Under the pieces are notes generated by a model. It was not told the DNA's origin and made no database searches. It saw nothing but the letters and a program-made list of their open reading frames with translations. Shown one piece after another: positions 15,167-61,484 of a stretch of 64,000 nt of DNA. The position numbers and the translations under genes are program-made. Source of the stretch: a virus. The stretch's first letter is position 1, and each line of letters begins with the position of its first letter. Where the stretch lies: positions 119,278 through 183,277 of the IMG/VR virus record IMGVR_UViG_3300019487_000019; one strand, given 5' to 3'.

Positions 15167-15208
15167 CGAGAGCGCCCTTTTATTGTTGTTTTTGGTGGGG
15201 TTCCTTTT

Positions 15209-15236
15209 ATTATAGCAGGTTTTTTCCACCAGTCAA
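15209..15236 (-). promoter_or_regulatory. sigma70-like promoter for gp55-47-NADAR-46
   Basis: TTGACT-N16-TATAAT with extended TG. Confidence 0.75.
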
Positions 15237-40483: not shown

Positions 40484-40768
40484 TTAGTTTATAAAGACGT
40501 CGGGGGAACCGGCCGTGAAAGCACCATCATGACAGCTAGGAGGACAACAGTGAACGCTGTGAAGGTCGCCTACGCGTGCAAGAGGGAGATTATTGGCAAA
40601 GACATTCGGGGAAGCCGTGACAACAACGGCGGGCGGAAAGCACCCATGCCCGGTTGTTAAGTCGGTAAGACGAGCGTGTGGAATACTATTTGCAAAAACG
40701 TTTGGGCTTCCCGTGGCTTGTGTATCGCCGTCGCTATAAGGGTCGCCAATTCGGGTTGCTGCTGGCAC
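40484..40768 (-). CDS. PAAR spike-tip protein (gp5.4-like)
   Basis: MPAATRIGD, GSPNVFAN.IPHAR, HGCFPP, LARVGD, GSPDVFIN. Confidence 0.93.
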   Translation of the reverse strand: MPAATRIGDPYSDGDTQATGSPNVFANSIPHARLTDLTTGHGCFPPAVVVTASPNVFANNLPLARVGDLHSVHCCPPSCHDGAFTAGSPDVFIN

Positions 40769-40812: not shown

Positions 40813-41289
40813 ATGTTCGAGAGCATTTTACACGGTATTATAGCGTTTTTCGCTGCCATCCCATTTTCCAAAGCGACCTGGCTCGTACTTGGTATTCTTG
40901 GCTTCTTTGTGTGGCTATTTCGCAAGGCTCAAAGAGACCCCGCAAGCCCAATCGATTGGGAAGATCTGATTGTCGACGACATAACAGGGAAGACATCTCC
41001 CTACAAAGTCGGCTATCTTTTAGGACTGATCGTCGGCACCTGGGTAGTAATCACTTACGCTGACAGTGGCAAGCTGGACTTTGATATTTTTGGTGTGTAC
41101 CTTTCGTACCTGCTTGGTGGTGCTGGCTGGACTGCCTTTATGAAAATGAAAGCAGCCAACGGCAACAACGGTAATGGAGGTGGTTATCGTCCTGGTGGTT
41201 ACGGCGGCGGTTATCGACGACCACCACCAAAACTAGACGATGATGACGAAGAATTAGATGACGCATTGCCGCCACACGAGAAAAAATAA
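40813..41289 (+). CDS. membrane protein, holin-like candidate
   Basis: Three to four hydrophobic segments, DLIVDDITGKTS, charged C-terminal tail. Confidence 0.5.
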   Translation: MFESILHGIIAFFAAIPFSKATWLVLGILGFFVWLFRKAQRDPASPIDWEDLIVDDITGKTSPYKVGYLLGLIVGTWVVITYADSGKLDFDIFGVYLSYLLGGAGWTAFMKMKAANGNNGNGGGYRPGGYGGGYRRPPPKLDDDDEELDDALPPHEKK

Positions 41290-41361: not shown

Positions 41362-41838
41362 CTACGCCCATTGGTAATCGTTTGTCGCGGCGCGGAACTC
41401 TTCTGAAACGAAAACGTTAGGGAGTAAAGCACGCACGTCTCGATCGCGGATGCTGACGAATGTAGCATAATGTACGGGATTACCTGTGCTCTTTTCGATA
41501 AAATGCCCCGCTCTGTACGGATTATAACTGATCGGAATTCCAAAGTCGTGAACCGCGTCCCATGACTTTGCAATATTACTGGCAGTATATCCCGCTAACA
41601 AAGTTTTTTCGTCGACGAGGCGCGTCACGTATCCTCGAACGTCGAGAACCTCACCAACGATTCCGGCATGAACGTTTTTTCGTTTGTGGGCTAGAATACG
41701 TTGGCGACCAGCTTCACTGACGCGAAAGTCAGGAGCGGCGATGAGTATGGATGTGGCGTAGCCAACAACCAATCCTTTGTTCCGGAGCGAATACGTCCAG
41801 CCTTTTCGGTTAAGATTACGGTAGATAAACGGTCTCAT
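41362..41838 (-). CDS. conserved phage hypothetical protein
   Basis: MRPFIYRNLN...FRVSEAGRQRILAHKRKNVHAG...YNPY; ATGA coupling. Confidence 0.7.
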   Translation of the reverse strand: MRPFIYRNLNRKGWTYSLRNKGLVVGYATSILIAAPDFRVSEAGRQRILAHKRKNVHAGIVGEVLDVRGYVTRLVDEKTLLAGYTASNIAKSWDAVHDFGIPISYNPYRAGHFIEKSTGNPVHYATFVSIRDRDVRALLPNVFVSEEFRAATNDYQWA

Positions 41839-42023
41839 TGATTGGGCTCGTGAACAGCATCGACCCATCCACGGCCAGTATACATGAACATCTGTCCGAG
41901 GCCGGTGTGGAAGAACGTTGAGCCAATTGGTATGTCTAGCCACACACGAACACCATTCGATAGGTCGCGAAATTGTTTTGGGACTTCTTCACCCGTAATG
42001 TGATGTGCACTAAAGTTGAACAT
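41835..42023 (-). CDS. hypothetical 62-aa protein
   Basis: MFNFSAHH...QMFMYTGRGW; fills the gap between coupled genes. Confidence 0.5.
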   Translation of the reverse strand: MFNFSAHHITGEEVPKQFRDLSNGVRVWLDIPIGSTFFHTGLGQMFMYTGRGWVDAVHEPNQ

Positions 42024-42162
42024 TGGGAATGTACGGACAATAGAAATAGCCAGTGTCGTGGGCTCCGCCAAGCATGAAGACAAGAACACCGTTTTCCAAC
42101 CACACAAAGTCTCCGGTGCCTTTGTAGCCAACGAGAATATTCTCTTCTTTGTTTGTTGTCAT
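42010..42162 (-). CDS. 50-aa mini-protein with a major capsid (gp23) C-terminal motif
   Basis: Below the ORF-track cutoff; ATGA-coupled to the RNase H stop; MTTNKEENILVGYKGTGDFVWLENGVLVFMLGGAHDTGYFYCPYIPNVQL. Confidence 0.7.
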   Translation of the reverse strand: MTTNKEENILVGYKGTGDFVWLENGVLVFMLGGAHDTGYFYCPYIPNVQL

Positions 42163-43070
42163 TTGCTTAGTAGGGGAACAAATTGATCAATTTGCTTTGC
42201 AATATTGTCCAACTTGTATTTACCCAAGAACTTCAACAGATGGAAATGTGAATACTTTCGCTCCAATGCCTCTGCTTCCACAACAGTCTTTTCGATTTTG
42301 ACGCGAATTGGGTCGGGTTGCTGGGCCAAGTCCATAAGGAGAATGTTCTCTTCGTACAGATCTTCAACCATGAATTCAGTCTTGGTTTTGGGGTCAGTCC
42401 ACAATTCCTTCATCATTTGAACCCGTTCAAATGGATCTGTGTAGGCTTTCTCGATTCGTTTTGCACCAACACGTGGAAGTGCAGATTGAATGTTGTCAGT
42501 CTGATGATCGCCACGAACACAATTAAAGAATACGAAGTAATCAGCATCGTTGTTGTATTCTGCCAACGTAAGCGGCTTGTCTGTTGCGGGGGAAATGATT
42601 GTTAGCTGTGGGTGGCGCAAAAGCTGCAAGAAATCCTGGTCGCTACTGATCAGTACGATTTGATCTTGTGGATGCAGTTGTACAAAACCAGCGATCACGT
42701 CGTCTGCTTCGAGTAAATCTGCTGCAAGCGTAATGATTGTTGAGTAGTTTGTAATCAATGTCTCAAAGTCTTTAAGATGTCCACAGAAGCGTTCGTACTT
42801 TGCTTGTTGACCCGGCGACATATCTTTGCGGCGATTGCCTTTGTATGGTCGCTTTGAGATGCAGAGATCGCTAGCTGTATAACTCTTACGCCAGCTTGAC
42901 CGATCAAACGCCATAACGACTCGATCAGGCTTATGCTGTCGAAAGTATTTGTTCAGCGTCATCAGTGCAGAGTGCATTGCGAGGCCTGCGATCGTATCAT
43001 CACTCTCGTCCTTGTGAGCAAAGAACGTGCGGTACAGCATATTGGAGATATCAAAAACTAGATATTTCAT
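42159..43070 (-). CDS. rnh: RNase H / 5'-3' flap exonuclease (T4 Rnh-like)
   Basis: VFDISN, AFD..SWRK, YKGNR, EADDVIA, ISSDQDFLQL, RGD..DNI. Confidence 0.92.
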   Translation of the reverse strand: MKYLVFDISNMLYRTFFAHKDESDDTIAGLAMHSALMTLNKYFRQHKPDRVVMAFDRSSWRKSYTASDLCISKRPYKGNRRKDMSPGQQAKYERFCGHLKDFETLITNYSTIITLAADLLEADDVIAGFVQLHPQDQIVLISSDQDFLQLLRHPQLTIISPATDKPLTLAEYNNDADYFVFFNCVRGDHQTDNIQSALPRVGAKRIEKAYTDPFERVQMMKELWTDPKTKTEFMVEDLYEENILLMDLAQQPDPIRVKIEKTVVEAEALERKYSHFHLLKFLGKYKLDNIAKQIDQFVPLLSK

Positions 43071-43519
43071 TCGAAATCCGCAATCTTGCCCTTTTGAGAT
43101 GCGTGTTCAACGACATTCTCCTCGAGTTTTTCCAGAAGGTCTTCGTATAGAAATGCGACATACTTCCGAACGATGTCTTCGTCGTTGGCACCTTTCAGTC
43201 CATTGTCCTTCAAGTATTGGATGAAGGCCTCATTCCAGTCTAGGCCGATTGCGATTCCTTTGACTTCATCAAATCCTTCGCTCGTAATCTTAATCCAGGG
43301 ATCGGTTGCATCGTACTTGGCTTGTTCTTCGATTTCTTTCTTTTCAAATCCTTCAACCTTTGTACGGAGTTGTGCGTTGTCGTGTCGAAGGATTGCATTT
43401 GCCTCTTCCATTCTAATTAGACGATTGGCAAGCTCATCAAAACGAGTATTGAGACGCTCTTCAAGAGTAGGTCCTTCCGGTGGTCGTTGTGTTGCTTGTA
43501 AAAAACTAAACATTCCCAT
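43067..43519 (-). CDS. conserved phage hypothetical protein
   Basis: Coiled coil followed by PW...LDWNEAFIQYLKDNG..G.NDEDIV. Confidence 0.7.
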   Translation of the reverse strand: MGMFSFLQATQRPPEGPTLEERLNTRFDELANRLIRMEEANAILRHDNAQLRTKVEGFEKKEIEEQAKYDATDPWIKITSEGFDEVKGIAIGLDWNEAFIQYLKDNGLKGANDEDIVRKYVAFLYEDLLEKLEENVVEHASQKGKIADFE

Positions 43520-43521
43520 TG

Positions 43522-44232
43522 TTATGTCCTCGGTGGTATGTACAAATCCAGCTTGTTTACAACGACTTTAATCATGCCTTTTGATGTTAAGAAGAAGTCG
43601 CCGTCAGGGCACTGTTTGAATAGTGTCAACAGGTGTTTGACAGGATATCTATGGGCAAACTTCGACGGCATTCCAGTCGCACCCTCGAGTGTGTAGGAAC
43701 TGGCGAATGTGTGGACGAATGTATCTTTGTTAATGTCTTCCATTTTAAACGACACCCCATCAACTGGGTCACCCACAAACTCGATCTCATCCGCTTTCAT
43801 TGCGGAAGCACCCTTGGACATTAGGAGAACAGCTTCGGGTGTCAGTGTGATACGATATTTCACAGTGTCATTCAGTGTTTTAGGAGCTGCAATCGTAGCA
43901 GGATTTGCACAACGATAATCAATCTTTACACCCTTACCTTTCATCGTTAATGCTCGTGCAAATTCTTTTGCGTCGTCCAGAGTCGCTTCAATTTCAACAT
44001 TGTCGCAACTCTTTGCGATCTGGTAGCGCGACATGAAAATGTCGATTCGATTGAGACCAATCGAGCGAAAGGGAAGAACTGGAACGTCGTGGTCTTGGAA
44101 GATTACAACGAGGCGATCATCGTCAACTGCTCGAATTTTGTCCGGTTCGATGATGACGCTATCGATATGAACGAGAAGGGCCGTCTCAACAACGTTTTGA
44201 ATATATGCGAGGGTAAATGGGTCGAGTTTCAT
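43522..44232 (-). CDS. probable sliding clamp (gp45-like)
   Basis: 236 aa, alternating beta/alpha pattern, in the polymerase operon; motif support is weak. Confidence 0.5.
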   Translation of the reverse strand: MKLDPFTLAYIQNVVETALLVHIDSVIIEPDKIRAVDDDRLVVIFQDHDVPVLPFRSIGLNRIDIFMSRYQIAKSCDNVEIEATLDDAKEFARALTMKGKGVKIDYRCANPATIAAPKTLNDTVKYRITLTPEAVLLMSKGASAMKADEIEFVGDPVDGVSFKMEDINKDTFVHTFASSYTLEGATGMPSKFAHRYPVKHLLTLFKQCPDGDFFLTSKGMIKVVVNKLDLYIPPRT

Positions 44233-44246
44233 TTGTTATCCTTGTT

Positions 44247-44687
44247 CTACTCACCATTTTCCTCCTTTTCGCTGTCTGCGTCAAGAAGTGCAACAAGATC
44301 GTCAACAGACGTTGGTGTAGTGCGCGGTGAGCCATCCTTCTCCAGCTCGAAGACTTCTGCTTCGCCTGAAAGATTCAACCATACAGCAACAATGTGTCGA
44401 TGGCAAAACTTTCCTGGACCTTCATAACATAGCAGGATCGAACCCTCGGGAAGAGCATCAACGACAGCGCCCGGGGTTAGATGACGTTGTTTTAATTCTT
44501 TCCCGTAACGGCGAGTGTATTCCTGCGCATTGATTGTGCCACCTTTGATATCACGAAGTAACTCCCACGACGGAGCCAAAGAACGCATTCGTTTTCCCTT
44601 ATAGAAGAACGGTTCTTTTGCACTAATTGATACAGCTTCTGGTCGTTTCCCTGAACGGGAATAGTATGACGTGTATAGGCGCTTCAT
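44247..44687 (-). CDS. DUF488-family protein
   Basis: LYTSYY, LAPSWELL, LLCYEGPGKFCHRHIVA; ATGA coupling at 44687. Confidence 0.8.
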   Translation of the reverse strand: MKRLYTSYYSRSGKRPEAVSISAKEPFFYKGKRMRSLAPSWELLRDIKGGTINAQEYTRRYGKELKQRHLTPGAVVDALPEGSILLCYEGPGKFCHRHIVAVWLNLSGEAEVFELEKDGSPRTTPTSVDDLVALLDADSEKEENGE

Positions 44688-45610
44688 TTGCGTTTCTTGA
44701 TCGGTTTCTTCGGCGGTGCCGGTTTCTTTGGCGCTTCTCCCGTCTCCACCCAATGCTTGATGTTTGACGCATCAGCAGCCCGAGCTTCATTACTAATGGC
44801 ATTGAGCAACACGACGATAACCTTTTTCACGCCCATTGAAGTCATCATTACAACACAACGGCCGGCATCCTTGATGTAGCCAGTTTTCTGAACTTCGATA
44901 GTCCAATCAGGCTTTCGAACAAGGCCGTTCGTGGTACCAAAGCCAACCTTTTTGGCTCGCTTTTTACTATACGTTGTCATCTCAAATTGAGTCGATGTAC
45001 TGAAGTCCTTAACGAGAACGTAATCACTTGAATGTCGAACGAGAATGGCAAGGTCTGTGGCGGTTGAGACGTTGTCATTACGCAATCCAATCGAATCGAC
45101 GTACTTTGTACTGTACATTCCAATCATTTGTGCTTTGTGGTTCATCGCACCCACAAAAACATCAACCCCACCTGGATAAGTGCGTGCAAGAGCAGCGGCA
45201 GCGCGATTTTGGGAATTCATTAACGCCAGATGGAGTAGCTCCGCTCGAGTGAGCTTTGCACCAACTGGTAATGAACGGCTCGTTCCACTATCCGCTCGTG
45301 TTGCCTCAACATCCTCTTGTGTAATTACGATTTCTTCCTCGAGATCAAGACGAGCATCGAGAATAACAACAGCTGTCATTAGTTTTGTAATCGAGGCGAT
45401 CGAACGGATGTCTTCTGCGTTTTTCTCGATGATTTTTTCACCTGTCTCAGCATCGATGACAAGTACAGATTGAGCATTTAGAGGGAACGGCGGTTGTTCG
45501 TCGGCCTTTGCCTTACCAGCAACAAGCCAAAGAAGCCCTGCCATTGCCGCAGCCAAGAGAACAAATTTGCCAATGGACCAAGCGCAATAAACAATTCGCG
45601 GATACATCAT
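44684..45610 (-). CDS. pbpG: D-alanyl-D-alanine endopeptidase PBP7-like (peptidase S11)
   Basis: N-terminal signal/TM segment; IASITKLMTA (SxxK), SQN (SxN), KTGY (KTG), YPGG, AMNHKA. Confidence 0.88.
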   Translation of the reverse strand: MMYPRIVYCAWSIGKFVLLAAAMAGLLWLVAGKAKADEQPPFPLNAQSVLVIDAETGEKIIEKNAEDIRSIASITKLMTAVVILDARLDLEEEIVITQEDVEATRADSGTSRSLPVGAKLTRAELLHLALMNSQNRAAAALARTYPGGVDVFVGAMNHKAQMIGMYSTKYVDSIGLRNDNVSTATDLAILVRHSSDYVLVKDFSTSTQFEMTTYSKKRAKKVGFGTTNGLVRKPDWTIEVQKTGYIKDAGRCVVMMTSMGVKKVIVVLLNAISNEARAADASNIKHWVETGEAPKKPAPPKKPIKKRK

Positions 45611-45615
45611 TCCTC

Positions 45616-48600
45616 CTAGCCAAAAAGATCATCAAACAACAAATCTTGTTTCGTTGGTGTTCGCTTTCCTATTGCTTTCAAAATGTTTTGGAGTGGATTG
45701 TCAACTAATCGTTCAATGTGAGCATCGTAGTCAATGTCAAAATTTTCTAGGAACCACGGTGGCACAACTTCAATGTCGGTTGGAAGAGCAATACTTTTGA
45801 ATTTCGAACCGCCGAGTTGATGAAGTGCATCGAGGTAAAAGACCTTGATTTTCATGTCATTTGTGATTGGTGGACTGATCTTATCTCCGTACTCCTTCAA
45901 ACATTGATTGTAATGAATTGCTGCTGCCACGTGGCCGGGCAGACGCGTATCTTCACCGAATTGTCGATATTGCCTCTCATAATCTTCAATACCATGAATT
46001 CCCTTGGGAAGTCCAATTTGCATCACATCCTTTACAGCGCGCAGCTCATCTTTGTAATTGACAACCTCTCTAGCCACAGTTTCCCACGAGCTACCCTTCA
46101 GATATCCCGCAACAAACGCATTAAGTCGATCAGCGATAGGACGTGGCAATGTGGTCTTTTTTGTGTCAAGACCCATGACCTTCATACTATCTGACGGTTT
46201 ACCCTCCTTGTCAACAACATGCAATACATAGCGTTTCTTATCAACTAAAATCCCACGGTCCGATATGATCTCTCTACCGACTTTAATCACCTCATCGAAG
46301 CCTTCATTACACAAAAAAGTCTGTTGTAAGAATGCTTTATATGACTCGTTGACCTTTTTCGCAACTGCATCTGCAACTTTGACAGCGTCTTGGACGTTTG
46401 TACAATGTGTTCGGAAATATGTGCTATCAGTGTTGTGAACAAGTATTTCATTCGCATAAAACAGATGAGTATCATTAACTTCAATATCATAGACGTATTG
46501 TTCTCTTGGGGGCAGAGCTTGAACTTTTAAACATTTAGCAAATGAAAGATTGTATCGTGTTTCTGCTTGTTTTTTCCGTCCCTCATTCCACTTCTTTGTT
46601 TTTCGTGGTTGTATAAATCCTACCAAAGAGTAAAAGTCTTTTTGATTTCTAATTGTAAGTCTTGTTGAAAATGTTCCCGTTGGTTGCCCGTTATAGGAAT
46701 TGGGTGTGTTTTCTGTAAACCACGTTGATGATATCCCACACAACAGCAATAATCTATGAATGTCTTTAATGTGTTGCTCGTTGACACTTGCAAGGCCAAC
46801 AACCTTTTGATTATTTGACCAACCATCAGCAGAAAACCAACCACGCAAAAAGGCACAAATATTTTCAGTGGTGTCAGTAAATAACCAACGTGGAATAATC
46901 TTTTGGTTTTCTTCGTAGAGATGTTTTCGCAGCGTTTTGCGAAGCTTTACAGAAGAAATTTGAATATCGTGACCGTTTGGCTTAACATACCACGATGAAA
47001 TCCAACCATCTTCCTTTAGAGGTTGTAAAAGATTCGAACAAACGACATTTAAATCCTGTCTTCCAACTGAAAGTAATGTTCCGCCCGTTTTAGTTTTATC
47101 TACATAACCATCGCCCATAACATAGCCCATTAATGTATAAAGATGTTTTGAATAATCGGTTTGACAAGTTCCTTTAAAGGGAATGTAGGGAAGAGTTAGT
47201 AATGATGAACAAATGTTAGTTGGTTTTGTTTCTTGCAAAAAATCTCCTGACGTTTTTCTCTGTTGGGTGTTTTTGTATGTTATTAAAGAGTGGTCTTCAG
47301 TCAAGTCCACATATTGACGATTTGTAATCCACACGCGATATAATTGTTTGGTTGTTTTATGACGCATCACGTATTTAATTGGTCTAAAACACGTTTGTTT
47401 TGTTTCTTTATCGTAAGTAAGCGCTTGTTGGTCTTGTAAGAAACAATATTCTTTCTTGTCAATTTGTTTATTGGTTGCTGTAAATAAACTTTCAATCGTT
47501 CTTGGACCTTTAACTGTCTCTATCAAAGTATCACCAGCAACACTGTCGCCATATAGAACCGATTCTGCCATAAAGCGACCGTTGAACACTGGTCCACCTA
47601 ATGCAGCCGCATCAGCGACACCAGCTTCACTAGCACTTTTCGGTGTATCATATTGAGGAAACTCAACATTATAATTGCCGTCAAGAATTTCAGCAACTTT
47701 TCGACATTGGTGTCGTAGAATCATGCGGCCAGTCCCAGTTGTACTCTCTCCCATCCGAAGATCGTAGAAGCGGAAATACAAATTGGTGAGCGCCCCGTAC
47801 AGTGAGTTCAATTTGATCTTGAACACATACTGGAGACGATCATAATAGTCAGCCTTATCGTGATCATCTGCAGCTTCAGCTTCCTTCTTCATCGCTTGAT
47901 ATTTCCGTCGCATCGCATACCATTCGGCAAGAATTGTCGGAATGATTCCTTGTTCGTTTTGATCAAATACCGTACCAAATCCACTGACGGCCCACTTTCG
48001 TTTCTTCAACCAGTCTCGAAATTCATCACCGGACATTACTACGACCTCTCCCGTTTCGAGTGTTAAATGAAGCTGAGCAAAAGTCCCCTTGGCAATTGCT
48101 TCGGTTGCTTTTTCCTCTTCACGAAACTGACCACGAAGTGTTTCCGGGGAGATATTGATAGCTCGAATAGCACTTGGATACAGAGAGTTGATATCGATGG
48201 AAGCAATGAATTCATGCAGTCCAACTTGTGGATATAGTACAAGCGCTCCTGCAATTTGTTGATCAACGGCTGGTGGCTTTGCATTTTGTACAACACGTTT
48301 CAACACGTGATGACAATAGTTAATGATAGCAAACTCTGCTAGTTTCAAAGTGCCCGTGACGTGCTCGAATAATCCGGTTGAAATGTGATACATTTGATTT
48401 GCAAGCTCGATGTAGCCAAGCTTTTGTTCGAAACCGTGCAGAATTTCAACATCTCGAATGTTGTATCGTGTGAAGAACCCGTAGTTCTTCCGATACAAAT
48501 CATGTAATGAGCCTTGATATTCCAACTTTGGAAGTCCCAGACCAACCTCTTGTTCGATTGATGCTAGTTTGTATGATGGTTTATCAGCTACTTCGTATTT

Positions 48601-49413
48601 TTTGTATAGTAATTGATAGTCAACACGGATTCGACCTTCAAGATCGATCGTATCACCAAGTTTCTTTCGTTCTCCTGTTTGCACATCAACAATAGCTTTG
48701 GAGAACACTTCGCGCCAGGTTGGCTTGCAACCCCGAAAATCGAGTTTTGAAAGCGGAATCTTGTAGCGCTCCATGCGCTTTGCGATGTATGGCATATCGA
48801 ACAAATCACTGTACCAACCAGAAAGAACGTCAGCATCACTAATCTCATCAATCATCTTGTTGAGAAGTTCGAGTTCATTTTCACAGACGTGTAGTCGAAG
48901 TTTATATGTTGTTGGAATAGGTACGTCCTTGCCGATTTCTTCAAGTAGTCGTTCGGTTGTCCATCCTGCTTCTGGTGGAACGGTGTAGACAACCAATTCA
49001 TTGCTCCATTCGTGAAACATAGCAATTGAACTAATGGGAGCATAGGGATTTTGAACGCCTGCGAAGCCCAGTTCGGGGTTATAATCAACCTCAATGTCTA
49101 GAAACGTGATATGAAGCTTTGGTGCTGGTTTGGCATAGTATGCCATTGAAAGAACGCGTTGTTCTGATGCGATGTCACTTTCGTACAAAGTGTGTCCATT
49201 GCGTTCGTATTCTTGACGTTTGTTGTAAAAATCGCTTTTGCTAATGCATTCAACTCTGGAAACTCGATCTCCATAAATCGTTCGATACTTGCCATTGACG
49301 TTATCAATGTAGAAATAGTGCGGTGCCGGGTAAACGACTTCTGTTCGGCCATTCTCGTCTCGCTCCCAAACGATGACGTCCTCGTTTTTCGTGATTGCAG
49401 AAATATAACTCAT
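45616..49413 (-). CDS. gp43: family B DNA polymerase (gp43) with intein
   Basis: LDIEVD, YNIRDV, DINSLYPS, KIKLNSLYG, YGD|TDS, KKRY. Confidence 0.97.
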   Translation of the reverse strand: MSYISAITKNEDVIVWERDENGRTEVVYPAPHYFYIDNVNGKYRTIYGDRVSRVECISKSDFYNKRQEYERNGHTLYESDIASEQRVLSMAYYAKPAPKLHITFLDIEVDYNPELGFAGVQNPYAPISSIAMFHEWSNELVVYTVPPEAGWTTERLLEEIGKDVPIPTTYKLRLHVCENELELLNKMIDEISDADVLSGWYSDLFDMPYIAKRMERYKIPLSKLDFRGCKPTWREVFSKAIVDVQTGERKKLGDTIDLEGRIRVDYQLLYKKYEVADKPSYKLASIEQEVGLGLPKLEYQGSLHDLYRKNYGFFTRYNIRDVEILHGFEQKLGYIELANQMYHISTGLFEHVTGTLKLAEFAIINYCHHVLKRVVQNAKPPAVDQQIAGALVLYPQVGLHEFIASIDINSLYPSAIRAINISPETLRGQFREEEKATEAIAKGTFAQLHLTLETGEVVVMSGDEFRDWLKKRKWAVSGFGTVFDQNEQGIIPTILAEWYAMRRKYQAMKKEAEAADDHDKADYYDRLQYVFKIKLNSLYGALTNLYFRFYDLRMGESTTGTGRMILRHQCRKVAEILDGNYNVEFPQYDTPKSASEAGVADAAALGGPVFNGRFMAESVLYGDSVAGDTLIETVKGPRTIESLFTATNKQIDKKEYCFLQDQQALTYDKETKQTCFRPIKYVMRHKTTKQLYRVWITNRQYVDLTEDHSLITYKNTQQRKTSGDFLQETKPTNICSSLLTLPYIPFKGTCQTDYSKHLYTLMGYVMGDGYVDKTKTGGTLLSVGRQDLNVVCSNLLQPLKEDGWISSWYVKPNGHDIQISSVKLRKTLRKHLYEENQKIIPRWLFTDTTENICAFLRGWFSADGWSNNQKVVGLASVNEQHIKDIHRLLLLCGISSTWFTENTPNSYNGQPTGTFSTRLTIRNQKDFYSLVGFIQPRKTKKWNEGRKKQAETRYNLSFAKCLKVQALPPREQYVYDIEVNDTHLFYANEILVHNTDSTYFRTHCTNVQDAVKVADAVAKKVNESYKAFLQQTFLCNEGFDEVIKVGREIISDRGILVDKKRYVLHVVDKEGKPSDSMKVMGLDTKKTTLPRPIADRLNAFVAGYLKGSSWETVAREVVNYKDELRAVKDVMQIGLPKGIHGIEDYERQYRQFGEDTRLPGHVAAAIHYNQCLKEYGDKISPPITNDMKIKVFYLDALHQLGGSKFKSIALPTDIEVVPPWFLENFDIDYDAHIERLVDNPLQNILKAIGKRTPTKQDLLFDDLFG
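46432..47544 (-). mobile_element. 371-aa LAGLIDADG intein in polymerase motif C
   Basis: YGD|SVAGDT...LTEDHS...GYVMGDG...FLRGWFSADG...VYDIEV...FYANEILVHN|TDS. Confidence 0.96.
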
Positions 49414-49435
49414 TCATTCTTCTCCTAGATACAAG

Positions 49436-49464
49436 ATTTTACGCCGGCCCACCAGAAACGACAA
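49436..49464 (-). promoter_or_regulatory. sigma70-like promoter for the polymerase operon
   Basis: TTGTCG-N17-TAAAAT. Confidence 0.65.
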
Positions 49465-49531
49465 CGTTTACCCAGCATCTTCAATAAATACCCTTACGCA
49501 TTTTACTCGGCGGTTTTCAAGGAGAAAAATT

Positions 49532-51940
49532 ATGTCGAACGCTGTTCCTATCAAAGGTGAAACAGACAAAGAACTGGGTGCTCAGTTTGCGCCTCTTTCT
49601 GTTTCCGCACAGCTGATTCCAAATCTCACGGTAAGCATTCGTGCAGGTTCATTCTGGAATGCTGATAATGAAGTTGTGGAATTTCCAGGTGGTAATTCAC
49701 CGGCAATTGCAGCTCCAGGTTCCCTAAATCGTTGGACATTGGTCTCATTGAACGCAGCTGGTTCCGTTGTACTAACGCACGGCACATCATCAGCAGCACC
49801 AGCCATCCCAGCTCCACCAACAGGCAACTTGCCATTGGCGGCTGTATATATGACCTCAGCAACTACCCAAATTACTTCTGTGGTAATCATGGATGTACGT
49901 CCTCAGAACCGCGTTGTTGCTGATCCAACAGCAGCACTTGTTGACTACCCAACGTTTACAGATATGAACAACGCTCTTGCGTTGAAAGCAGACGTTGACG
50001 GTACACCAAACTCACAGTTCTACATGAACAAGGGAGCAGCAGGTCCTGCAAACGCACTGTTCTCAATTGATCGTGGCGCTTCAGTCGATGTTTCGATTCG
50101 TTGGAATGAGGCAACAGACAAGTGGCAGTTTACAAACGACGGCACAACGTTCGTTGATATGGCATCGGTTTCTGGCTCATTCATGCCAATTCAAGGTGCA
50201 GCTGTTTCTGGTAATGTTGGCACATTCAACGGTGTTGGTGAAATCATTGACAGTGGTACAGCTCTAACAGCCCTAGCAACTGATGTAGAAATCGCAACAA
50301 AACTTGATGATTTCGTAGGTGTAAACGGCAACGTGGTCGTAGTTGCGGGTCTTGGTACAGCGCTAGCAGATGGTGGTATTGCACTTTCAGCTCTTGCAAC
50401 AGATGCTGAAGTTGCAGCTCTTGATGCCCTCGTTGTTCACCTCGCTGGCACAGAAACAATCACAGGCACCAAAACGTTCTCAGCAGCACCAACATTTGCA
50501 AATGCAGGTAATTCGTTCATCAACTTCACAAAAGGTGCAGCAAGCGATGCGGGTATCCACGTCGATCGTGGCGTAGACCCATTTGCACTACTCGAGTGGG
50601 ATGAAACAACGGACCAGTGGATTGCAGGCGTCAACGGCTCAGCATTCCCAATTCTTACAGCCGAGAACCTGGCACTTGATGATCTAACAGACGTAGTTCT
50701 TACTGCACCAGCAACAAACAATGTCCTACAATACAATGGTACAGACTGGGTCAACACAGCCAAGATAACACTGGCGGCTGGAACAGCAGCACTTCCTGCA
50801 TACACGTTTGCATCAGATGCAACCAAAGGTACGTACGACAGTGGCGCCGGTCGAGTGAGTATCGCAATTGCGGGTGCCGAAAAAGTTCGTTTTGACGCTG
50901 GTGGTGTAACGACATTTTCCGGCTACGCACAAGGCGGTGTTGGTGGCATGGCTCTGTGGCACACAGCAACTCCAGCAGTCGGCGTCACGCTGGCTGCCGG
51001 CAACGTTGCAATGACTAATGGTGCAAACTCAATTACAGTTAGCCCGGTAGGTGTTGCGTTCACAGGCACAGTAACACTGCCAGGTGGTGGTTCACCCGTA
51101 GCAACAACACGTGCTATTAATACGACTGTCGGTGATCTAACAGGTGGTGGTGATCTTTCAGCCGATCGTACATTATCGCTAGCAACAACAGCAGTCATTC
51201 CAGGTGCATTCGGCTCAGCCACAGCAGTTGGTACGTTTACGGTTGATACGAAGGGTCGTTTGACAGCAGCTGGTGCCACACCAATCGCGATCCTCGGTGG
51301 ACAGCTCACGATTGCTGGAACGAGCGGTAACGTTGTATCGTTGAACGGTTCTAACAATCCAGTTGACAGCGGCATTGAAGCTGTTGACGTATTCTTAAGG
51401 GACGGCTCTGTTCTAGCAGTTGATCCGTTCGATATGAATGGAAACGGCTTTTACAATGTCGTCTTTGTAGACGGCAAGAACGATAGCACTATGGCAATTA
51501 CTGCTGGAACAAACGGGGGTGGCACAACGAGCGGTAACAACGTGTTCGTTCGTGGTGGCCCAGCTGTAAACGGCATGGGTGGTGGCGTATTGCTCTTCGG
51601 TCGCGACGGTGCTGGCGTAGATCAGGATGGTGGTAGTGTGCTGGTGTTCACGGGTGCAAAAACTGGTCTTGGTTCTCCTGGCTACTTTGAAGTCGGTACT
51701 CCTGCAGGTCAGTCGTTGAAAGTCACGGGCGTTGGTAACGTTGTCCTAGGTTTGACAACAGATCCAATCGCAGCAACTGATGGTTTCCCATATATTCCGT
51801 TCACAACAACGGCTGGTACACCATCAGGCACACCAACAGCAGTAGCTGGATTTGCACCAATGATCGCTCAGGACGATGGTGGTGTATTCACACTGTGGAT
51901 CTACATGAGTGGTGCTTGGAGGGCTGCAACTCTTGTGTAA
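49532..51940 (+). CDS. virion structural/tail fibre-like protein
   Basis: Late promoter; Gly/Ala/Thr-rich; fibre motifs (VVHLAGTETITGTKTF, LDDLTDV...NVLQYNGTDW, TVDTKGRLTAA). Confidence 0.7.
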   Translation: MSNAVPIKGETDKELGAQFAPLSVSAQLIPNLTVSIRAGSFWNADNEVVEFPGGNSPAIAAPGSLNRWTLVSLNAAGSVVLTHGTSSAAPAIPAPPTGNLPLAAVYMTSATTQITSVVIMDVRPQNRVVADPTAALVDYPTFTDMNNALALKADVDGTPNSQFYMNKGAAGPANALFSIDRGASVDVSIRWNEATDKWQFTNDGTTFVDMASVSGSFMPIQGAAVSGNVGTFNGVGEIIDSGTALTALATDVEIATKLDDFVGVNGNVVVVAGLGTALADGGIALSALATDAEVAALDALVVHLAGTETITGTKTFSAAPTFANAGNSFINFTKGAASDAGIHVDRGVDPFALLEWDETTDQWIAGVNGSAFPILTAENLALDDLTDVVLTAPATNNVLQYNGTDWVNTAKITLAAGTAALPAYTFASDATKGTYDSGAGRVSIAIAGAEKVRFDAGGVTTFSGYAQGGVGGMALWHTATPAVGVTLAAGNVAMTNGANSITVSPVGVAFTGTVTLPGGGSPVATTRAINTTVGDLTGGGDLSADRTLSLATTAVIPGAFGSATAVGTFTVDTKGRLTAAGATPIAILGGQLTIAGTSGNVVSLNGSNNPVDSGIEAVDVFLRDGSVLAVDPFDMNGNGFYNVVFVDGKNDSTMAITAGTNGGGTTSGNNVFVRGGPAVNGMGGGVLLFGRDGAGVDQDGGSVLVFTGAKTGLGSPGYFEVGTPAGQSLKVTGVGNVVLGLTTDPIAATDGFPYIPFTTTAGTPSGTPTAVAGFAPMIAQDDGGVFTLWIYMSGAWRAATLV

Positions 51941-51962
51941 TTTCCTGTTCGGGACGGGAAAG

Positions 51963-51990
51963 AGGCCGGCGAAAGTCGGCCTTTTTATTT
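51963..51990 (+). terminator. intrinsic terminator
   Basis: AGGCCGGC-GAAA-GTCGGCCT followed by TTTTATTT. Confidence 0.85.
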
Positions 51991-51994
51991 GGCA

Positions 51995-52408
51995 TTATCC
52001 GTGAACGGTGATCGTGTCGTATAGCACTTTGACTTTGACCATGCGATACTCAGTCGCATCGAGCCCATCAACTTCAAGAGACGGGACATAACAGTTGTGC
52101 ATGGTGTAGTACAGATCAGGAACTATGCAAATGAATTTTGGAGCAAGTCCTTCACGCTGGCCTTCCATCTGGTCCTCCAATAGACGAAACAGCGTTGATG
52201 TTGGTTCATCAATGGAGCAAGGGTCGTCTTGGACCAGACCAAAGGTAATTTCAACTGGCTCGTACGTGTGTCGTCCCGGAAGCGTAATACGACCATTGTA
52301 TTGCTCAATCTCAACCATTTCTATGGAAACGCGCGGTACGCTAACGCCCAAAACGTTAAATCGACGATAGGTCATAAGCTGACCTAAGTGAAGGAAGTCG
52401 ATAATCAT
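51995..52408 (-). CDS. compact tail-tube (gp19-like) paralogue
   Basis: PRVSIEMVEIEQYNGRITLPGRHTYEPVEITF...HNCY...VKVLYD. Confidence 0.6.
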   Translation of the reverse strand: MIIDFLHLGQLMTYRRFNVLGVSVPRVSIEMVEIEQYNGRITLPGRHTYEPVEITFGLVQDDPCSIDEPTSTLFRLLEDQMEGQREGLAPKFICIVPDLYYTMHNCYVPSLEVDGLDATEYRMVKVKVLYDTITVHG

Positions 52409-52857
52409 TCGTATGGGAGCTCCACTAATTCCACACCCATTTCTTGTGCATAGGTCCTAACACGAACAAACGCATCGCCCCATCGTGTGAGTTGTTCAGG
52501 GGTTGCTTGTGGAGCTACAAAACGAACAATACCTCGCTGTACCATTTGTACAAAGCAGCGATCACACGACATAAACGGCCATGTATACAGCGTATAACCG
52601 TGTAGAGCTTCCCTTGCAAAGTCAGCCGCATTCACTTCGCAGTGAATGATACGGCTGTATTTCTCGTCTCGATTTGAATATAGTTCAGGTAAATCGGGCA
52701 TTTTTTGGGGGAACCCGTTGAAACCAACGGAACAAACGCTACGGTCGGAACGAACGATTACAGCACCAGTTTTTGTGCTTGGATCCTTGGAACGACTAGC
52801 AATATACTTCGCCATTCCAAGGTAGAATTCGTCCCACGATTCGCGTTTTTCTGTCAT
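52405..52857 (-). CDS. cd: dCMP deaminase
   Basis: RSKDPSTKTGAVIV, GFNGFP, HCEVNA, SCDRC. Confidence 0.92.
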   Translation of the reverse strand: MTEKRESWDEFYLGMAKYIASRSKDPSTKTGAVIVRSDRSVCSVGFNGFPQKMPDLPELYSNRDEKYSRIIHCEVNAADFAREALHGYTLYTWPFMSCDRCFVQMVQRGIVRFVAPQATPEQLTRWGDAFVRVRTYAQEMGVELVELPYE

Positions 52858-53198
52858 TATTTGTCCTCGCCCTCCGCATCGAGCGGATCGCGCAATTTCC
52901 CTTCAATCAGCGTTTCGTATAGTGTTTCGAAATGCCGGTTTTCTTCTTGGAGCGATGTGTAATTGTGTTTGTACATCGTTTTTGCGAGCTTACTGATAAC
53001 TTTTCGTTCAATACCAGTTTGTGTCGCCGCGTCACCAATCGCTTCCTTGATCAATTCTTTCTTCCGGTCGATCTCCTGAAGATGTTCTGTAATCGTAACC
53101 AAAACTGTCTTGAATTTCTTCCGCTCGTCCTGATTGTTCACCACTTTGTTGACGGATTGTTCCGTCGAGGGTTTCGCTTGTTTCTTGAATTTTGCCAT
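52857..53198 (-). CDS. dsDNA-binding protein (DsbA/GapR-like)
   Basis: GGAGG RBS; IDRKKELIKEAI...IERKVISKLAKTMYK...FETLYE. Confidence 0.65.
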   Translation of the reverse strand: MAKFKKQAKPSTEQSVNKVVNNQDERKKFKTVLVTITEHLQEIDRKKELIKEAIGDAATQTGIERKVISKLAKTMYKHNYTSLQEENRHFETLYETLIEGKLRDPLDAEGEDK

Positions 53199-53895
53199 TA
53201 TTATTTTCCTCCTGGGCAATGATTGTATCTTCTATATCATTTTGTGGTTTGTCAAGCTCTGCGTTGAGTGCAACAACGACAGGTGTCCACTGACGCACAT
53301 CGGAAACGTATTTTGCGCGTGGGGCTTCCTTACGCTTCAAAGCATTTCCAATACCCATATTATAGGCAGCAACAGCTCGAGCCCATTCACTTTGAACCAT
53401 GTCAAGATACTGAACAAATAGCGTGATCCCTAACCGAATGTTCAACTTCGGATTCGTCAGCAAAAGTTTGATGATTTCTTTATCGTGAATTTGTGAAAGC
53501 GATCGATCACCAAAGAATTGTTGCCGAAGCGAATCATTGTCGCGAAACAGAACACGAGCAGTTGGTACAGTCAACTGCATTAGACCATACGATCGGCGTG
53601 AAGGATGTGCAGTTGGAAGTCCAATACTTCCGCCTGTTCCCGCACGGGTTTCGACCATCATAATCGCTTGGAGTGTTTGTAGGTGTTGAGAAACACCCAT
53701 CTCAACAACGACTTCTCGTAGTAGTTTCAGATTGCTGACCGCAACGCTGGTAAAAGTGTAGTCCGTAGTTTTCTTCTTTGTCTGAACTGACACAATAATC
53801 GAACCATCTTCGAGAGTTTGTGCTGAAACTGTTGGACTAGCCAGCACAACAAAGGTGGCAAGTAGCATCACGGTGAGGTAGTTGGACGTGTTCAT
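53032..53895 (-). CDS. secreted lytic transglycosylase (SLT domain)
   Basis: Signal peptide; AIMMVET, SYGLMQL, AYNMG. Confidence 0.88.
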   Translation of the reverse strand: MNTSNYLTVMLLATFVVLASPTVSAQTLEDGSIIVSVQTKKKTTDYTFTSVAVSNLKLLREVVVEMGVSQHLQTLQAIMMVETRAGTGGSIGLPTAHPSRRSYGLMQLTVPTARVLFRDNDSLRQQFFGDRSLSQIHDKEIIKLLLTNPKLNIRLGITLFVQYLDMVQSEWARAVAAYNMGIGNALKRKEAPRAKYVSDVRQWTPVVVALNAELDKPQNDIEDTIIAQEENNNGKIQETSETLDGTIRQQSGEQSGRAEEIQDSFGYDYRTSSGDRPEERIDQGSDW

Positions 53896-55186: not shown

Positions 55187-55849
55187 CTATTTTTTGGTGT
55201 TGTGGTAGGTATTTATGCGGAGGATTAGGGGTTGAATCCAGTTCTCTACACGCTCCTTGAACACAAGAGGAACCATTCCCTTCTCGACCGACATGATGAT
55301 AACAATGTTGTCGATTTGGATGTCGTACATCTCGTGAAACATCAGTGCATAGGCGGTAGTTTGAAGGTAATAGTCCTCAATCATTGACTTGTACTTGTCG
55401 TTTGTTGACGTTTTGAAGTCGACAACTGCAATCGTCCCTTCCCAATCTGCAATACAGTCAACTCGACCAGCAAGCTTCAGGGAATCACTGTACAGAGCAG
55501 CTTCTTGTACGTAAATGTTGTTGACGCTCTTTAGTTTTAGGCGAACAGAATTGAACTCACCGACGTGATCGGGAAATTGTTCAAACGTTGGATTGGGGTC
55601 GTTGGCGAGATGTTTCTCGATCATTTTGTGAACGGCTTCACCACGATCAGCTGTTCGTTTTTTCTCGAAATCTGCCCGGAATTCACCTAGACTCTGTCGC
55701 CAATCGTTAAGCCATGGCTTTTCTTTTGCATCTAAAACAGTCGTCACAGACGGATAAACATTTCCGGCAGGAGTTGTATAGAAACGGCCCTTGGATGTTG
55801 TTTCAACGTCGAGATTAACGGGTATAATTTTATTATTATGGATGAACAC
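55187..55849 (-). CDS. PD-(D/E)XK exonuclease (Cas4-like)
   Basis: YPSVTTVL, RGEAVH, LAGRVDCI, VDFKTS, YYLQTTAYA. Confidence 0.9.
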   Translation of the reverse strand: MFIHNNKIIPVNLDVETTSKGRFYTTPAGNVYPSVTTVLDAKEKPWLNDWRQSLGEFRADFEKKRTADRGEAVHKMIEKHLANDPNPTFEQFPDHVGEFNSVRLKLKSVNNIYVQEAALYSDSLKLAGRVDCIADWEGTIAVVDFKTSTNDKYKSMIEDYYLQTTAYALMFHEMYDIQIDNIVIIMSVEKGMVPLVFKERVENWIQPLILRINTYHNTKK

Positions 55850-57528: not shown

Positions 57529-57585
57529 AGTGATTGTCCTTATGGGGTTTCGTTCCCATTATTTATGAACAAGCAGGGAAAAGCG

Positions 57586-59550: not shown

Positions 59551-59579
59551 ATTATAGGAACAAAAGGCCGTTTAGACAA
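59551..59579 (-). promoter_or_regulatory. sigma70-like promoter for gp41
   Basis: TTGTCT-N17-TATAAT. Confidence 0.75.
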
Positions 59580-61448: not shown

Positions 61449-61484
61449 GAAATATACCCCTTTGGGTATATTTATGCTGATTTT

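Follow-up and report, generated by a model that had tools for sequence, protein, structure and literature searches.

The window examined here is a 64-kb stretch of phage DNA that forms the end of a 183,277-bp virus record in IMG/VR (IMGVR_UViG_3300019487_000019; completeness 58% according to CheckV). Among its genes for replication and nucleotide metabolism lie two small open reading frames (ORFs), here called ORF A and ORF B, which resemble the major capsid protein (MCP) and the tail tube protein of the same phage, respectively. These parents are the phage's two most abundant virion proteins, and both ORFs are likely to be real, independent accessory genes derived from them. Positions are those of the window unless prefixed by C1, which denotes the whole record, or by L, which denotes a locus of a relative. 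The two ORFs and the features adjoining them are:

42010–42162, minus strand: ORF A, 50 amino acids (aa), a two-strand C-terminal capsid motif with a 20-aa insert between the strands
42159–43070, minus strand: RNase H gene (T4 rnh-like 5′-3′ exonuclease; PF02739, E 7e-17), kept in 17 relatives and adjoining ORF A upstream
41835–42023, minus strand: ORF62, an orphan of 62 aa, with a 14-nt overlap to the end of ORF A and a stop codon that overlaps the ATG of the L5-gp82-like gene (ATGA)
41839–42162, minus strand: lineage-specific insert of 324 nt at the junction of rnh and the L5-gp82-like gene, carrying ORF A and ORF62, with ATGA at both ends
41362–41838, minus strand: L5-gp82-like gene (PF25735, E 5e-26), which closes the polymerase operon
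51995–52408, minus strand: ORF B, 137 aa, tail-tube fold, last gene of its own operon
52405–52857, minus strand: dCMP deaminase gene, coupled to ORF B (ATGA) and to dsbA (TAATG); the deaminase gene and ORF B together make up an insertion of about 860 nt not found in relatives
51960–51990, bidirectional: hairpin terminator (GGCCG, 8 nt, CGGCC) with a T-run on the plus-strand side, read from the sequence and shared by ORF B with a convergent fibre gene

The ATG of ORF A overlaps the stop codon of rnh as ATGA, and the ATG of ORF B overlaps the stop codon of the dCMP deaminase gene in the same way, in agreement with the translational coupling postulated in a preliminary description of this DNA. 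A comparison of 107 non-overlapping proteins of at least 170 aa with 465 small ORFs outside them returned only the pairs MCP/ORF A and tube/ORF B at E < 0.01. The two shrunken structural homologues that had been proposed are thus confirmed, and they are the sole such pairs among the small ORFs of the record.

The capsid-like part of ORF A consists of ILVGYKG and DTGYFYCPYIP, which correspond to residues 403–409 and 415–425 of the MCP encoded in the same record (G000:C1:117460-118896) and are identical to them in 18 of 18 residues (BLASTP E 8e-9 over MCP residues 403–425). The 5-aa turn connecting the two strands in the MCP is replaced by 20 aa in ORF A, a net in-frame insertion of 15 aa, and this 20-aa insert was seen in none of 45 sampled MCPs. 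The conserved motif ILVGYKG...D(T/A)GYFYCPYIP is present in ORF A and likewise in 45 IMG/VR MCP genes. A profile comparison linked ORF A to phrog_138 (major head protein) at E 7e-4, while its score against the Pfam Gp23 model (PF07068; 17.2 bits at positions 310–325 of 376) stayed below the membership cut-off of 24.4 bits; the phage's own MCP reached 323.5 bits over positions 1–376. ORF A extends over about 19 positions of this capsid model (310–328). Alignment with the solved structure of T4 gp23 placed the copied segment at about residues 450–475. Known landmarks of gp23 are residues 381–420 of the A domain and the A-P linker at residues 486–502 (PMC9546572), and from its placement between the two the ORF A motif probably belongs to the A domain. 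No model and no neighbours of ORF A were found in the ESM Atlas.

A tblastn search of the flanks of ORF A with the MCP revealed no capsid homology past the ORF in any frame. As the MCP gene is intact and flanking homology is missing, an exon or split piece of the MCP gene was ruled out. One frameshifted gene made of ORF A and ORF62 was also ruled out, since the ORF62 frame contains no MCP-like continuation.

A codon-by-codon comparison of ORF A with the own MCP gene showed differences in 12 of the 18 shared codons, all of them synonymous. None of 2,000,000 simulated random sets of 12 substitutions left the peptide unchanged. As read from the codons, the pattern proves purifying selection somewhere between ORF A and the MCP gene without assigning it to a branch. 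The 18 shared residues are the most conserved ones of the family and are identical in the MCPs of several relatives. The closest sampled MCP DNA matched ORF A in 43 of 54 nt, compared with 42 of 54 nt for the own MCP. ORF A may accordingly be either old and selected or captured from an unsampled, equally diverged MCP gene. The intact frame, the in-frame insertion, the coupling and the codon usage fit the former reading, and the absence from all relatives fits capture or repeated loss.

Codon usage was scored with a log-odds model trained on the large genes of the record, in which 50-codon windows averaged 0.237 in frame and -0.340 off frame. ORF A scored 0.299, a value reached by none of 4000 off-frame windows, and ORF B scored 0.204. 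The score of ORF62 was in-frame-like as well (0.215); this ORF had no family and no homologue in any library searched. The L5-gp82-like gene downstream is contained in a long ORF of 193 aa. Because the match to PF25735 (mycobacteriophage L5 gp82 family) spans residues 36–171 of this ORF and the rival N-terminal extension scored -0.161, the true start of the gene is probably the ATG at 41838.

ORF B matched phrog_4542 (tail tube) with an E-value of 4.5e-10, restricted to residues 7–61, and scored 16.4 bits against PF06841 (gp19), below the family cut-off of 28.2 bits. The real tube protein of the record has 194 aa (C1:100184-100768; phrog_4542 E 2e-44) and is adjoined by a second tube-domain protein of 485 aa. 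ORF B shares about 20% identity with the 194-aa tube (BLASTP E 4e-7) and 20–29% with tube proteins in general. Its best viral match in sequence and fold was a 260-aa protein of Salicola phage SCTP-2. That phage carries several tube-fold paralogues of 215–408 aa, which cluster near a head-completion gene (L056, genes 445–450). PDB sequence searches with ORF B and with the real tube yielded nothing useful.

Structure predictions placed ORF B in the same fold. The ESM-Atlas model matched tail-tube clusters with TM scores of 0.75–0.78 over 121–132 of the 137 residues. An AF2 model based on an alignment with 26 true tube proteins had a pLDDT of 78 and a pTM of 0.69, and Foldseek assigned it to tube-fold chains of AFP, PVC, Anabaena and Streptomyces injection systems and T4 (5w5f, 5iv5, 9mkb) with a probability of 1.0 and TM scores of 0.55–0.65. 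Both models exhibit the beta-sandwich, long hairpin and single helix that define the tube fold. Two points temper this assignment: the pLDDT of the ESM model was only 0.60, and the AF2 model is partly circular as its alignment consisted of tube proteins, a circularity from which the ESM result is free. A single-sequence AF2 prediction was poor (pLDDT 47) and its Foldseek result was discarded as meaningless.

Compared with the 26 tube proteins, which are 70–82% identical to each other, ORF B is short of four parts: the N-terminal arm (first 24 residues) and a 14-residue loop (WLIGAEGQWLAAAG), both nearly invariant, a segment of 8 residues, and the conserved C-terminal arm formed by the final ~19 residues. 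The long hairpin with its invariant Y-N...H residues is retained. ORF B is a tail-tube protein reduced to its beta-sandwich core. Judging from tube structures in general, the lost parts would be those that make ring-to-ring and subunit contacts.

The phage itself, which is uncultured, encodes a gp23-type MCP of 478 aa that is 60% identical to the MCP of the Xanthomonas jumbo phage XacN1 and 51–60% identical to the MCPs of Xoo-sp13, the Stenotrophomonas phages CM1 and RAS14 and the Ralstonia phage RsoM2USA, which identifies it as a jumbo phage with a T4-type core. A contig of 355,604 bp likewise encodes the proteins of ORF A and ORF B. The stretch was found unchanged in two cave-metagenome DNA runs, so that no polymorphism was usable. 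Megablast of the 10.5-kb region against phage records matched nothing.

A scan of IMG/VR with the N-terminal part of the polymerase identified 16 loci and another scan one more, giving 17 syntenic loci. All 17 share the gene order exonuclease, Zn-protease-like gene, 2OG oxygenase, SLT, dsbA, fibre gene (opposite strand) and polymerase, followed by S11 peptidase (not always present), DUF488, clamp, a 150-aa gene, rnh, the L5-gp82-like gene and the membrane-protein gene (both facultative), PAAR and a 144-aa gene. ORF A, ORF62, the deaminase and ORF B were present in none of them. The two loci closest to the window, L082 and L088 (74% identity in rnh), lack the 324-nt insert: there the L5-gp82-like gene follows rnh immediately, its ATG overlapping the rnh stop codon. 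In two loci, L082 and L095, the convergent fibre gene ends 40–55 bases past the dsbA-like gene, where the window has the ~860 bases of deaminase and ORF B. As judged from gene order, the ORF A cassette and the deaminase/ORF B pair are two separate lineage-specific insertions into a conserved backbone.

Homologues of the two ORFs were sought more widely. A word-indexed search of 5.8 billion proteins returned only the query itself for either ORF. Full HMMER with ORF B against 1.84 billion representatives returned ORF B and one spurious match, a 3202-aa repeat-rich, eukaryote-like protein, which was rejected as a homologue since its score was summed over repeats. An IMG/VR scan with ORF A produced 45 matches, all of them inside full-length MCP frames (357–628 aa) and none in another mini-gene. 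At 52 IMG/VR loci with related deaminases (up to 71% identical), no tube-like neighbour was detected even with phmmer --max. The preliminary description had tied its proposal to recurrence in other genomes, and neither ORF recurred in the 17 syntenic relatives, four large related records, four cultured relatives or the protein libraries. The co-occurrence expected of a multi-gene system was likewise not observed: the 17 syntenic loci, the loci of the 52 deaminases and the whole records of relatives contained neither ORF.

This distribution bears on the view that both ORFs are young, neutral debris of illegitimate recombination without a function: one a fragment picked up from an MCP gene, the other a tube duplicate in decay that came in alongside a horizontally acquired deaminase gene, both still open by chance. 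Confinement to one lineage, with no homologue in the 17 relatives or in the 5.8-billion and 1.84-billion libraries, and a position exactly at the insertion junctions are what debris would show, and the residues shared by ORF A are conserved in every gp23-type MCP and could have been inherited from a donor. However, both frames are intact, ATGA coupling is kept at each of the four junctions, and ORF A, ORF62 and ORF B all have codon scores typical of genes. The fragment is not visibly recent, with no close DNA donor (at most 43 of 54 nt), and the net insertion of 15 aa in ORF A is in frame. Moreover, ORF B is only 20–29% identical to tubes and is still predicted to fold, pointing to long survival as an open frame. 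Debris is therefore regarded as a rather unlikely origin, though one to be taken seriously.

The same searches speak to the idea that ORF A and ORF B are ordinary structural or assembly parts made late, with ORF B as a tube initiator, terminator or cap (gp48/gp54/gp3, Afp5-like) and ORF A as a head-assembly cofactor. Among the PDB entries that match the ORF B model best are baseplate and cap chains with a tube fold from AFP, PVC and T4, and its BFVD matches include proteins annotated as 'baseplate tail tube' and 'head-proximal tip of tail tube'. In addition, both ORFs are preceded by late-type promoter motifs (see below), and fibre and PAAR genes are located in the same region. Essential tail parts, however, are expected to be conserved, and the real tube has 949 homologues at 70–82% identity, compared with none for ORF B. 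In each of the four cultured and four large IMG/VR relatives, one of the latter being 100% complete, the tube family is represented by exactly two genes, and both belong to the tail module; ORF B is neither conserved nor encoded with the tail genes, as an initiator or terminator of the gp48, gp54 or gp3 type would be. ORF B also lacks the invariant arms and loop of the tube clade, and ORF A covers only 19 of 376 capsid-model positions. An ordinary minor tail protein was ranked low because ORF B is missing from every relative, and the structural role as a whole is improbable.

The likely transcription of both ORFs was judged from the following features:

45616–49413, minus strand: intein-containing DNA polymerase gene, which opens the operon ending with rnh, ORF A, ORF62 and the L5-gp82-like gene
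49436–49464, minus strand: sigma-70-like promoter TTGTCG-N17-TAAAAT upstream of the polymerase gene
42217–42223, minus strand: late-type variant GTAAATA within the 3′ end of rnh and 54 nt ahead of the ATG of ORF A
55210–55216, minus strand: late-type motif ATAAATA, preceding the Zn-protease-like gene by 35 nt and ORF B by 2.8 kb
49532–51940, plus strand: gene for a fibre or receptor-binding-like protein of 802 aa (BppL_N, E 4e-6) with its own ATAAATA at 49484–49490 (plus strand)

ATAAATA is the dominant upstream motif of the phage. Of 45 copies, 34 precede a same-strand start by at most 80 nt, mostly by 5–41 nt (background 4%). Examples are the copies at 49484–49490 (plus), 55210–55216 (minus), 57560–57566 (minus) and 61469–61475 (minus), and several copies are situated inside the replication region. 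A 645-aa protein encoded at 13292–15229 (minus) displays intein and LAGLIDADG matches together with a weak match to sigma-70 region 2, and it adjoins gp47- and gp46-like genes. Gene 55 of T4 sits at the gp47/gp46 position, and the 645-aa protein fits an intein-split late sigma factor of the gp55 type. Because of this sigma-like protein and the placement of the motif, ATAAATA is very probably a late promoter of the T4 type. The GTAAATA variant is found close upstream of starts in 6 of 18 cases, among them the PAAR gene and the 144-aa gene; its spacing of 54 nt to ORF A is at the long end of the range. No minus-strand terminator was predicted between the ATAAATA at 55210–55216 and ORF B. Hence the earlier statement that the operons are without TAAATA promoters does not hold for either ORF.

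Sigma-70-driven operons had been proposed as well, and this part of the proposal stands for the polymerase operon, which is preceded by a TTGTCK-N17-TAWAAT site. TTGTCK-N16-18-TAWAAT occurs twice in the window (0.17 expected): one site, at 49436–49464 (minus), precedes the polymerase gene, and the other, at 59551–59579 (minus), the gene of the DnaB-like helicase. A generic sigma-70 scan performed no better than shuffles (25 compared with 24.7 sites), and the counts of a terminator scan likewise equalled those of shuffles. Both sigma-70-like sites share the -35 element GTTGTC(G/T) and the -10 element TAWAAT. Taken together, the predicted promoters suggest that both ORFs can be reached by early/middle-type as well as late-type transcription, and their timing relative to that of the MCP and the tube cannot be read from the sequence.

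These data affect the version put forward at the outset, in which one coordinated early system of capsid and tube decoys blunts host sensors. Its attraction is that both parents belong to classes of defence triggers (DSR2, PMC10981675; CapRel, PMC9712102; Lit, PMC3014915), that both ORFs reside in operons of replication genes, the polymerase operon having a sigma-70-like promoter, and that only these two copies exist in the record. Yet the ORFs lie in different operons and entered by separate insertions 10 kb apart, and they were found neither together nor singly in another genome searched. Production before the real proteins appear was not established, given the late-type motifs upstream. Furthermore, the region copied in ORF A differs from the known Gol trigger region, and ORF B keeps the long beta-hairpin, unlike the loop-deleted form that silences DSR2. 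A joint early system is thus highly improbable.

The best explanation as a whole, which we favor tentatively, sees in ORF A and ORF B two accessory genes of an XacN1-related T4-core jumbo phage, lineage-specific and unrelated to each other, which may act as non-assembling look-alikes. Each would have been inserted separately at a gene junction or operon end of the replication and nucleotide-metabolism backbone, ORF B arriving together with the dCMP deaminase gene and ORF A with ORF62 in the 324-nt cassette. Both would be translated by coupling from mRNAs of replication operons transcribed from sigma-70-like promoters, and possibly from late-type promoters too. Unable to polymerise, the look-alikes would then compete for a binder of the unassembled parent, either a host sensor or an assembly factor of phage or host. 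Non-assembling look-alikes appear most likely because the parts that are conserved in the parents, presumably for polymerisation, are missing. Mimicry or competition as the mode of action of the two ORFs is possible, with the balance leaning slightly the other way; a host immune sensor as the specific target is unlikely.

Several observations weigh against this explanation. The synonymous-only pattern could be inherited from an unsampled donor MCP and not be earned by ORF A. No Shine-Dalgarno sequence is visible upstream of ORF A, and the late-type motifs upstream of both ORFs allow late expression. No homologue of either ORF was found that could reveal selection on the small genes themselves by comparison. 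Finally, a stand-alone trigger piece might activate a defence instead of blunting it, and the region copied in ORF A has no known sensor.

Competition for unassembled parents could also be directed against other phages. In that case the ORFs would be weapons against rival phages or satellites, poisoning capsid and tail assembly of co-infecting or superinfecting relatives while the own proteins are tolerant. The copied elements are the most conserved ones across the gp23 and tube families and would fit the proteins of rivals, and a patchy, lineage-specific distribution is typical of conflict genes. Since the ORF A strands are identical to the own MCP, self-poisoning would be expected, and such a function is quite improbable.

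The region surrounding the two ORFs encodes an intein-containing DNA polymerase, a clamp-like protein, RNase H, a DnaB-like helicase, a PD-(D/E)XK exonuclease, a DsbA-like protein and dCMP deaminase. Its structural genes are those of the 802-aa fibre-like protein and a PAAR protein. The location away from the structural module, as described earlier, is therefore correct in terms of distance only, for the fibre and PAAR genes lie within the same 12 kb. The PAAR spike-tip gene (40484–40768, minus) is found beside replication genes outside the baseplate block and has its own TGTAAATA motif 30 nt upstream; the adjoining membrane-protein gene (40813–41289, plus) is conserved in relatives. The polymerase intein comprises about 360 aa (roughly residues 625–985) and is present in the relatives L081, L095 and L004; most other relatives are without it, the two extein parts abutting. 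Two genes for cell wall enzymes are kept within the replication operons of the closest relatives and of this phage: an S11 D-Ala-D-Ala carboxypeptidase with an N-terminal membrane segment (44684–45610, minus) and an SLT transglycosylase with a signal peptide (53032–53895, minus). A DUF488-N3a ('active subclade') protein (44247–44753, minus), encoded between the S11 peptidase and the clamp-like gene, is conserved across relatives.

The suggestion to look for short paralogues of virion proteins in related phages gave a divided result. ORF A and ORF B themselves were never encountered, whereas other mini-genes made of MCP pieces turned up in operons of replication or early genes. When the threshold of the Gp23 model was set leniently, a scan of relatives detected short ORFs with one conserved MCP piece each in Xoo-sp13, XacN1 and the IMG/VR relative G004; the MCP pieces differ from that of ORF A. 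Gene 312 of Xoo-sp13 (L080:3205-3423; 72 aa) lies between the polymerase and a clamp-like gene and carries an N-terminal-type MCP motif that is identical to the MCP of Xoo-sp13 itself in 11 of 24 residues (E 3e-6). Homologues are encoded by the Stenotrophomonas phages DLP_6, Marzo, Mendera and Yut2 and by Agrobacterium phage Atu_ph04. The DLP_6 gene (AAY80_039; L167:2980-3213) lies between two clamp-loader genes and Marzo 261 (L168:2944-3147) in a run of small ORFs. In G004 an 82-aa ORF of this type (L155:1498-1746) is ATGA-coupled to a gene for a 207-aa protein, which by eye presumably resembles HAM1-type nucleotide pyrophosphatases. Members of this conserved family have 65–82 aa, an N-terminus of the form ...P..IA.(D/E)(L/I)V.VQP(M/I)... 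and the ending G(Y/F).PVS..L(M/L)W.K. They are ATGA-coupled within polymerase, clamp-loader or nucleotide-metabolism operons or located in runs of small ORFs. The N-terminal motif of the family is probably the Gol region.

In XacN1, ORF451 (L079:3251-3475; 74 aa) is part of a run of small overlapping ORFs and copies the MCP segment RKLxAGWTIE..QD...AEI, with 19 of 37 residues identical to the MCP of XacN1 itself (E 1e-11). Among 952 phage records, a second copy of the RKLxAGWTIE segment was found in XacN1 only. Another piece of capsid sequence is contained in a 435-aa non-capsid protein of the relative G003 (363 kb, 100% complete; L158:1189-2496, minus), in which DTGYFYAPYIPQM equals the second strand of the ORF A motif; the gene directly upstream we take, by eye, to resemble a clamp loader of the T4 gp44 type.

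The recurrence of capsid-piece mini-genes in replication and early operons makes mimicry plausible, and the locus is a clean example of what is apparently a wider, undescribed habit of large phages. A bolder generalization, that jumbo T4-core phages repeatedly mint small genes from pieces or cores of abundant virion proteins as sensor-occupying or assembly-tuning look-alikes, with ORF A and ORF B as two fresh, independent births, would go further than we think likely and has a small chance of being right. The locus shows a possible birth route: a conserved piece lands at an ATGA junction and is at once translated by coupling. Bacterial immunity is known to be triggered by capsid proteins (CapRel and Lit) and by tail-tube proteins (DSR2), and if the mini-copies do bind sensors of the unassembled parents, they would represent a new class of counter-defence that is simple to engineer. 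No natural phage-encoded look-alike of an immune trigger was found described in the literature searched. ORF A and ORF B are two clean, testable singletons, and conserved cousins are available in the culturable phages Xoo-sp13, XacN1 and DLP_6.

Among known systems, the gp23/gp24 family (PF07068, phrog_138; PDB 5vf3, 6uzc, 8gmo) is closest to ORF A, which repeats its C-terminal two-strand motif letter for letter. With 50 aa compared with 478 aa, ORF A cannot form the HK97 fold, whereas paralogues of the gp24 type are full length. ORF B shares the beta-sandwich-plus-helix fold and the YN...H hairpin with the tube family, which includes T4 gp19, gp48, gp54 and gp3 and the tube and tube-initiator proteins of AFP and PVC (PF06841, phrog_4542; PDB 5w5f, 5iv5, 6rao, 9qgl). 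It differs from them by the missing N-arm, loop and C-arm, its distance from sheath and tube genes and its coupling to dCMP deaminase.

A mechanism open to a natural look-alike is illustrated by DSR2. This sensor is activated only by the monomeric SPR tube, and an engineered, loop-deleted SPR tube binds it stably without activation (PMC10981675); a tube core unable to complete the activating contact thus still occupies the sensor (tube-deltaLoop1; PMC10981675, PMC11087589). The SPR tube comes from a siphophage and belongs to a different family, and where tube-deltaLoop1 is deleted in a loop, ORF B has kept the long beta-hairpin and lost other elements. DSAD1, a natural inhibitor of DSR2, is unrelated to tubes (PMC11087589).

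For capsid proteins, activation of CapRel has been described (PMC9712102), and Gol and Lit provide a precedent for a short stand-alone gp23 piece that is recognised by a defence. Gol is the most conserved part of gp23 and is located in its first quarter, and 29 of its residues suffice, with EF-Tu, to activate the Lit protease (PMC3014915). ORF A represents MCP residues 403–425 of 478 and hence does not originate from Gol; the effect expected of a Gol-like piece is to set the defence off, not to dampen it. A Gol-like motif is carried instead by the small proteins of Xoo-sp13, DLP_6 and the IMG/VR relative. The Xoo-sp13_312 family (...VxVQPM) and XacN1 ORF451 (RKLxAGWTIE...QD) are not homologous to ORF A, and the former is a conserved family whereas ORF A is a singleton. 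Like ORF A, they are short ORFs with a single MCP segment, ATGA-coupled in runs of replication, nucleotide-metabolism or small early genes.

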